Below, in pieces: positions 1 to 632 of a stretch of DNA of 632 bases. The stretch is from Escherichia coli. GTDB taxonomy: Bacteria > Pseudomonadota > Gammaproteobacteria > Enterobacterales > Enterobacteriaceae. The stretch lies in NCBI RefSeq assembly GCF_003334785.1, contig NZ_QOWV01000080.1. One strand, written 5' to 3'. The notes beneath the pieces are model-generated. The model was not told where the DNA came from and did no database searches. It worked only from the letters and a program-made list of their open reading frames with translations. Made by a program: the position numbers and the translations under genes. Position 1 is the first letter of the stretch. Each line of letters begins with the position of its first letter.

Positions 1-3
1 GAA

Positions 4-93
4 TGGCCCTCCAACCGTGTTGACGAACTCCTGCCATGGAACGTAGTACTCACCAATAAATAAGCGTCAATACGGTGCTCCGTTGACGCTTAC
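4..93. repeat. Left arm of a long imperfect inverted-repeat pair bracketing the IS30 fragment
   Basis: Position p pairs with position 636-p of the right flank: 59/90 complementary by hand count, no gaps. Perfect blocks include 67-76 (tcaatacggt) with 560-569 (accgtattga), 87-93 (cgcttac) with 543-549 (gtaagcg), 4-8 with 628-632, 13-17 with 619-623, 37-41 with 595-599. Confidence 0.8.
61..92. repeat. Hairpin-forming inverted repeat inside the left arm: perfect 10-bp stem, 12-nt loop
   Basis: 61-70 taagcgtcaa is the exact reverse complement of 83-92 ttgacgctta; the loop is 71-82 tacggtgctccg. On the minus strand the stem is followed by TTTATT (complement of 55-60). The corresponding region of the right arm (544-575) does not form an equivalent hairpin. 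Confidence 0.7.
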
Positions 94-542
94 AGATGAA
101 ATGGTCTCCAGAGCAAATATCAGGATGGTTAAGGCGAACAAAACCACGTCAAAAAACGCTGCGAATATCACCTGAGACAATTTATAAAACGCTGTACTTT
201 CGTAGCCGTGAAGCGCTACACCACCTGAATATACAGCATCTGCGACGGTCGCATAGCCTTCGCCATGGCAGGCGTCATACCCGCAAAGGCGAAAGAGGTA
301 CGATTAACATAGTGAACGGAACACCAATTCACGAACGTTCCCGAAATATCGATAACAGACGCTCTCTGGGGCATTGGGAGGGCGATTTAGTCTCAGGTAC
401 AAAAAACTCTCATATAGCCACACTTGTAGACCGAAAATCACGTTATACGATCATCCTTAGACTCAGGGGCAAAGATTCTGTCTCAGTAAATCAGGCTCTT
501 ACCGACAAATTCCTGAGTTTACCGTCAGAACTCAGAAAATCA
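94..542 (+). mobile_element. Internal fragment of an IS30-family insertion sequence (transposase gene body only; neither IS terminus present)
   Basis: Translation of 96-542 matches, from my memory of the protein, the central part of E. coli IS30 transposase InsI (MKWSPEQISGWLRRTKPRQKTLRISPETIYKTLYF...GHWEGDLVSGTKNSHIATLVDRKSRYTIILRLRGKDSVSVNQALTDKFLSLPSELRKS). Upstream of 94 the frame hits TGA at 84-86 and the expected ...LVLEKLE is absent; downstream of 542 the expected ...LTWDRGMELA is replaced by unrelated sequence. No IS30 terminal inverted repeat is recognisable. Boundaries are approximate to within a few bases. Confidence 0.85.
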
Positions 543-569
543 GTAAGCGACTCGTCAGAACCGTATTGA
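96..569 (+). pseudogene. insI: Truncated IS30 transposase ORF (InsI-like): 149 internal codons fused to 8 flank-encoded codons (VSDSSEPY) and a TGA stop
   Basis: Supplied ORF track 96-569 (157 aa). Contains the HWEGD motif typical of the first catalytic Asp region of IS30-family DDE transposases but lacks the N-terminal helix-turn-helix region and the distal catalytic residues. The ATG at 96 is an internal Met of the native protein; the 15 bases upstream (ttgacgcttacag) carry no GGAG-like Shine-Dalgarno; in-frame TGA at 84-86. Confidence 0.8.
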
Positions 570-632
570 TATTTACTGAGAGCTCAGATCAACTTTCCAG
601 GGCAACAGATCGCGTACCCGGTTTGCCGGCCA
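543..632. repeat. Right arm of the same imperfect inverted-repeat pair; begins at the first base after the IS30 homology
   Basis: Reverse complement of 543-632 aligns ungapped to 4-93 at about 66 percent identity; the strongest blocks are 543-549 and 560-569. The arm reaches the window edge and may continue beyond it. Confidence 0.8.

Follow-up and report, generated by a model that had tools for sequence, protein, structure and literature searches.

IS30 of Escherichia coli is a 1,221-bp insertion sequence, and its product InsI is a 383-aa DDE transposase with a full D-D-E triad. We take this triad to be D237, D293 and E327, on the basis of motif positions and of the known features of the family. 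The IS66-family elements ISEc47 and ISCro1 carry the genes tnpA-tnpB-tnpC, in an order that we saw in reference loci L003 and L004, end in GTAAGCG termini and make 8-bp target duplications, and such 8-bp duplications were present at four reference IS66-family insertions. ISCro1 has been described as a 2,699-bp member of this family that makes 8-bp duplications, among them TAACCTTT, and that has moved recently (PMC12115866). Insertion of one insertion sequence into another is routine in E. coli-like genomes. The loci closest to the one studied here are singly interrupted IS30 copies, found in TUM10008/TO6, in HL15/SF10 and on two plasmids, each of which has one IS66-family insertion with both halves of IS30 and the duplication visible. 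We compared these systems with a 632-nucleotide stretch of E. coli DNA (contig NZ_QOWV01000080.1), hereafter called the window, in which a piece of IS30 stands between the ends of ISEc47 and ISCro1. The window differs from the singly interrupted loci in having two different IS66-family elements, inverted with respect to each other, and a second breakpoint, at IS30 nt 929, that we saw nowhere else; its element at nt 481, ISEc47, is also a different one and has the opposite orientation. The structure is nevertheless of an already known kind, namely an ordinary nested-insertion scar.

We used the 1,221-bp copy of E. coli ATCC 11775 as the reference IS30, and all IS30 positions follow its numbering. 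Megablast searches of 5,426 complete E. coli genomes and PLSDB showed that window 94-542 (449 nt, plus strand) matched IS30 at exactly these coordinates, with 100% identity, in thousands of records from E. coli and from plasmids. The segment corresponds to IS30 nt 481-929, with 449/449 nucleotides identical to the reference, and window 96-542, translated in frame, gave 149/149 amino acids identical to InsI aa 141-289 of the same copy. The IS30 copy of K-12 MG1655 agreed with the fragment at 448/449 nucleotides and encoded the identical protein segment. The sole difference is synonymous and lies at IS30 nt 755, where the window and ATCC 11775 have G and K-12 has A; at the nucleotide level, the fragment carries the widespread non-K-12 allele of IS30. 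Profile searches returned NCBIfam transpos_IS30 (E=2.4e-32, profile positions 53-193 of 267) and a partial match to Pfam rve (model positions 3-73 of 102) that covers the first part of the integrase core. The original prediction had described 94-542 as an internal IS30 segment of canonical sequence, near-identical to IS30 and not a diverged homolog, and the complete identity to many E. coli copies bears this out.

The 40 nt beyond each fragment edge showed no resemblance to IS30 when compared with the reference copy. Since IS30 homology stops at both edges, the boundaries at 94 and 542 are exact to the base, as had been proposed. Two matches that reached window 546 (H14 and H15) came from an intact IS30 variant and contained no junction. 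The window retains 37% of IS30, the middle third of the element. Within the window, the 26-bp IS30 inverted repeats were not found, the best match having 10 mismatches in 26, and InsI residues 1-140, including the N-terminal DNA-binding region, are absent from the fragment. The first catalytic Asp, D237 (in WEGD), lies inside the fragment, and D293 and E327 lie outside it. Compared with IS30, the piece is thus sequence-perfect, yet it has neither the 26-bp ends nor aa 1-140, D293 and E327, and is a fragment, not an element. Two further points of the original prediction agree with these results: the end features and N-terminal region of IS30 are missing, and the fragment, from which two of the three catalytic residues are absent as well, is unable to transpose or to catalyse.

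Window 1-93 (plus strand) belongs to ISEc47, an IS66-family element, and is its right end, with 100% identity to annotated copies; it comprises the last 20 tnpC codons and the right inverted repeat, as indicated by identity and translation. The TnpC C-terminus reads EWPSNRVDELLPWNVVLTNK, with the stop codon at 61-63, and the terminus ...CGCTTAC occupies window 87-93, base 93 being the last base of the element. The ISEc47 reference copy in L004 is 2,532 bp long, runs from GTAAGCGTAAAC... to ...GTTGACGCTTAC, with its last base equivalent to window 93, and has AAACATCG as an 8-bp duplication on either side. A repeat search detected a perfect 10-bp inverted repeat, TAAGCGTCAA / TTGACGCTTA, with a 12-nt spacer at window 61-92. 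Both the stop codon of tnpC and the terminal bases of ISEc47 fall within this repeat, which belongs to the terminal structure of that element, not to IS30.

Window 543-632 (minus strand) is, in inverted orientation, the right end of ISCro1, a second member of the IS66 family, again with 100% identity to annotated copies and in agreement with translation and with the L003 comparison. Its terminus GTAAGCG corresponds to window 543-549, and the TnpC C-terminus, WPANRVRDLLPWKVDLSSQ, is encoded on the minus strand with its stop codon at 575-573. The ISCro1 reference copy in L003 measures 2,699 bp, has its terminal G at the equivalent of window 543 and is flanked by the duplication ACATAAAA. In both flanks, a TnpC C-terminus with an LLPW motif reads toward the right end of its element and stops 30 nt before the terminus; the two tnpC genes converge on the fragment, and the window edges lie about 60 nt inside each of them, which gives the window the look of a gap in the annotation with a fixed margin on each side. 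The window covers 93 nt of ISEc47 and 90 nt of ISCro1, compared with whole elements at the reference loci, and these flanks are 100% identical to the corresponding right ends. The IS66 terminal bases in the window are those of reference copies bounded by duplications. We also observed a subterminal ACCGTATTGA, 18-27 from the tip, in the right ends of ISEc47, ISCro1 and the IS66-family elements of the TUM10008 and HL15 loci; this motif may be bound by the transposase.

Because the fragment edges coincide with the terminal nucleotides of ISEc47 (window 93) and ISCro1 (window 543), the fragment was truncated by insertion. The original prediction had spoken of a recent truncation or capture event and of repeat arms around the segment. 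Truncation is upheld, nothing indicates capture, and a recent date is plausible in view of the 100% identity that the fragment and both flanks show to copies elsewhere. The repeat arms proved to be inverted repeats from the right ends of ISEc47 and ISCro1, which face the fragment; these bounding elements had been missed. Judged by identity alone, both insertion events plausibly look recent. In contrast, the TUM10008-type insertion at the same IS30 site, also present in TO6, has decayed to 94.7% identity to ISCro1 and has internal stops in tnpC.

IS66-family elements occur elsewhere as simple insertions in IS30. Plasmid pB4.H1.17.c11 carries an ISEc23-like element at IS30 364-371, with the duplication AGACGCTA, and plasmid p20171101CC-1 (L011) carries an ISEc47/ISEc23-like element at IS30 14-21, within the left inverted repeat, with the duplication GGTCAACG. 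In the chromosomes of TUM10008 (L006) and TO6 (L010), the decayed ISCro1-like element lies at IS30 481-488 and is flanked by duplicated AGATGAAA. The chromosome of HL15 (L007) has another element, which shares about 65% identity with ISCro1 and likewise with ISEc47, at the same eight positions and with the same duplication. All three chromosomal loci have the layout IS30 1-488, element, IS30 481-1221, and the two copies of AGATGAAA were located at 3298-3305 and 6010-6017 of L006 and at 3578-3585 and 6023-6030 of L007. IS30 nt 481-488 is therefore used as an IS66-family insertion site, and the TUM10008/TO6 and HL15/SF10 types share it with the left junction of the window. Using a 66-nt double probe for both window-type junctions, we found an IS66-type terminus abutting IS30 nt 481 in 8 E. 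coli records, 6 of the TUM10008 type and 2 from near-identical duck strains. The same probing found no E. coli record with an IS66-type terminus abutting IS30 nt 929, and no plasmid with either window-type junction.

Several features of the surroundings of these IS30 copies were also recorded. The insertion on p20171101CC-1 is evidenced at positions 1040-1075 and 3585-3610 of its locus, and similar ISEc47/ISEc23-like elements lie 71 bp (L012) and 37 bp (E2348/69, L001) upstream of the same IS30 copy, so that members of the IS66 family seem to be concentrated within and close to the IS30 module of these three loci. In ATCC 11775, TUM10008, HL15 and TO6, the IS30 module consists of an IS3-family fragment, IS30 and a 258-nt transposase fragment. 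Module copies in which IS30 has been hit at 481-488 occupy different chromosomal islands, beside lpxM-virK-capU in TUM10008/TO6 and close to fec and tRNA-Leu in HL15.

We consider it likely that a single IS30 copy was entered by two transposing IS66-family elements, which left its middle third as an inert remnant. ISEc47 would have inserted into IS30 nt 481-488, which would bring its right end up against window 94, and ISCro1, in the opposite orientation, would have inserted into IS30 nt 922-929, with its right end abutting window 542. With 8 bp duplicated per insertion, the fragment would have one whole target octamer at its left edge and the other at its right edge. The presumed ISEc47 target is AGATGAAA at window 94-101 (plus strand), the same octamer that two other IS66-family elements have duplicated. 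The presumed ISCro1 target is GAAAATCA at window 535-542 (plus strand), as suggested by the 8-bp duplications that ISCro1 makes elsewhere. This scheme predicts that IS30 1-488, ending in AGATGAAA, stands directly before the left end of ISEc47 (GTAAGCGTAAACTGACC...), and that GAAAATCA followed by IS30 930-1221 stands directly after the left end of ISCro1 (...GAGCCGGTTAC). The remaining parts of IS30 (1-488 and 922-1221) would thus still be present past the far ends of both elements; this, like any order of the two events, is inferred. The window stops short of those far ends, and the duplications are seen only at reference copies.

Megablast with the whole window found neither of its junctions among the 5,426 complete E. 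coli genomes, in PLSDB or in phage records, and exact patterns found neither in GTDB species representatives, JGI metagenomes or IMG/VR. Megablast matches listed as covering 86% of the window consisted of two separate pieces, with the IS66 end located elsewhere in IS30 or upstream of it. The left junction stands at a validated IS66-family target, and this makes a real transposition origin very likely and a misjoin very unlikely.

An assembly artefact, in which three multicopy repeats were wrongly joined, would account for an arrangement whose three segments are all high-copy repeats, each 100% identical to copies elsewhere, and which was found in exactly this form in no other public record searched. 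We nevertheless regard it as very improbable. Each breakpoint coincides with the terminal nucleotide of an IS66-family element, and one of them also with an octamer that has independently served as an IS66-family target; moreover, misjoins arise within shared repeats, not at transposon termini, and no sequence is common to IS30 and the IS66 ends. A later rearrangement is a less remote alternative, although still an unlikely one. An IS66-family insertion would have made the junctions, and the 449-bp piece would have been orphaned afterwards, with the other IS30 parts now elsewhere or lost, either through an inversion, deletion or replicon fusion brought about by homologous recombination among dispersed ISEc47/ISCro1 copies, or through recombination between two singly hit IS30 copies. 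Opportunities for such exchange exist, as ISEc47-like ends occur at up to 42 places per genome and ISCro1 ends at up to 26, as ISCro1-mediated homologous recombination between plasmids is on record (PMC12115866), and as the IS30 of E2348/69 is broken and scattered among other insertion sequences. However, the features of the window do not require a rearrangement, and all four comparable IS66-in-IS30 loci inspected were simple insertions with intact duplications.

The right junction is crossed by an open reading frame of 157 codons (window 96-569, plus strand), which covers InsI Met141-Ser289 and then 8 codons (VSDSSEPY) that belong to the ISCro1 inverted repeat. It could be supposed that this frame has been captured for a function, being expressed as a truncated transposase that, for example, interferes with the IS30 transposase. 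The frame is indeed open and starts at the native Met141, 2 nt past the ISEc47 terminus, the only alternative in-frame start being a GTG at 312. However, the frame is inherited from IS30 and meets a stop within 27 nt of the junction, and its product would have no N-terminal region and one of three catalytic residues. A scan of the window found no sigma-70-like promoter or terminator, an Rfam search of the window gave only a chance sub-threshold miRNA match, and an exact look-up found no record of the 157-aa junction-spanning product. Since the arrangement is also unique and not conserved among the searched records, we give functional capture almost no credence. No function is expected of the fragment, which would be an inert by-product, given that the IS30 ends and the N-terminal region are missing and the catalytic triad is incomplete. 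The window also resembles a composite transposon or MITE-like cassette, as a short segment lies between inverted, related terminal repeats. We rejected this candidate on the ground that the termini face the wrong way (...CGCTTAC, fragment, GTAAGCG...). Each of the two termini next to the fragment is the outer end of its own element; the fragment is thus target DNA outside both elements, and these two ends define no mobile unit that contains it.

The double insertion that we favour for the window adds a third element to those found at one IS30 octamer. The AGATGAAA site has received ISEc47 in the window, the decayed ISCro1-like element in 6 E. coli genomes, and a third element in HL15/SF10; these elements are only about 65% identical to one another and have entered in both orientations. 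Three of the six IS66-in-IS30 events that we enumerated fall at 481-488, for which the probability is on the order of 1e-5 if insertions are uniform over about 1,200 positions; the sample was ascertained through similarity to the window and cannot count as unbiased. IS30 477-498 forms a 7-bp inverted repeat, CTGGAGA-N8-TCTCCAG, and the octamer overlaps its left arm. The seven target octamers seen, too small a sample for this purpose, gave no convincing consensus, and we found no report of IS66-family targeting of IS30 in the searchable literature, with subscription journals outside its scope. We hold the chances to be even that IS30 481-488 is a genuine insertion hot spot for the IS66 family.

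The locus illustrates that a sequence-perfect, sharply bounded gene fragment can be explained by transposon termini in the 7 nt past each boundary. Its junctions, absent from all searched collections, may be usable as a lineage marker of the source strain. If the hot spot is true, it would reveal target-site selectivity within a family about whose choice of targets little is known, and if that selectivity is real, the IS30 octamer would provide a defined substrate for studying how IS66-family elements choose their targets.
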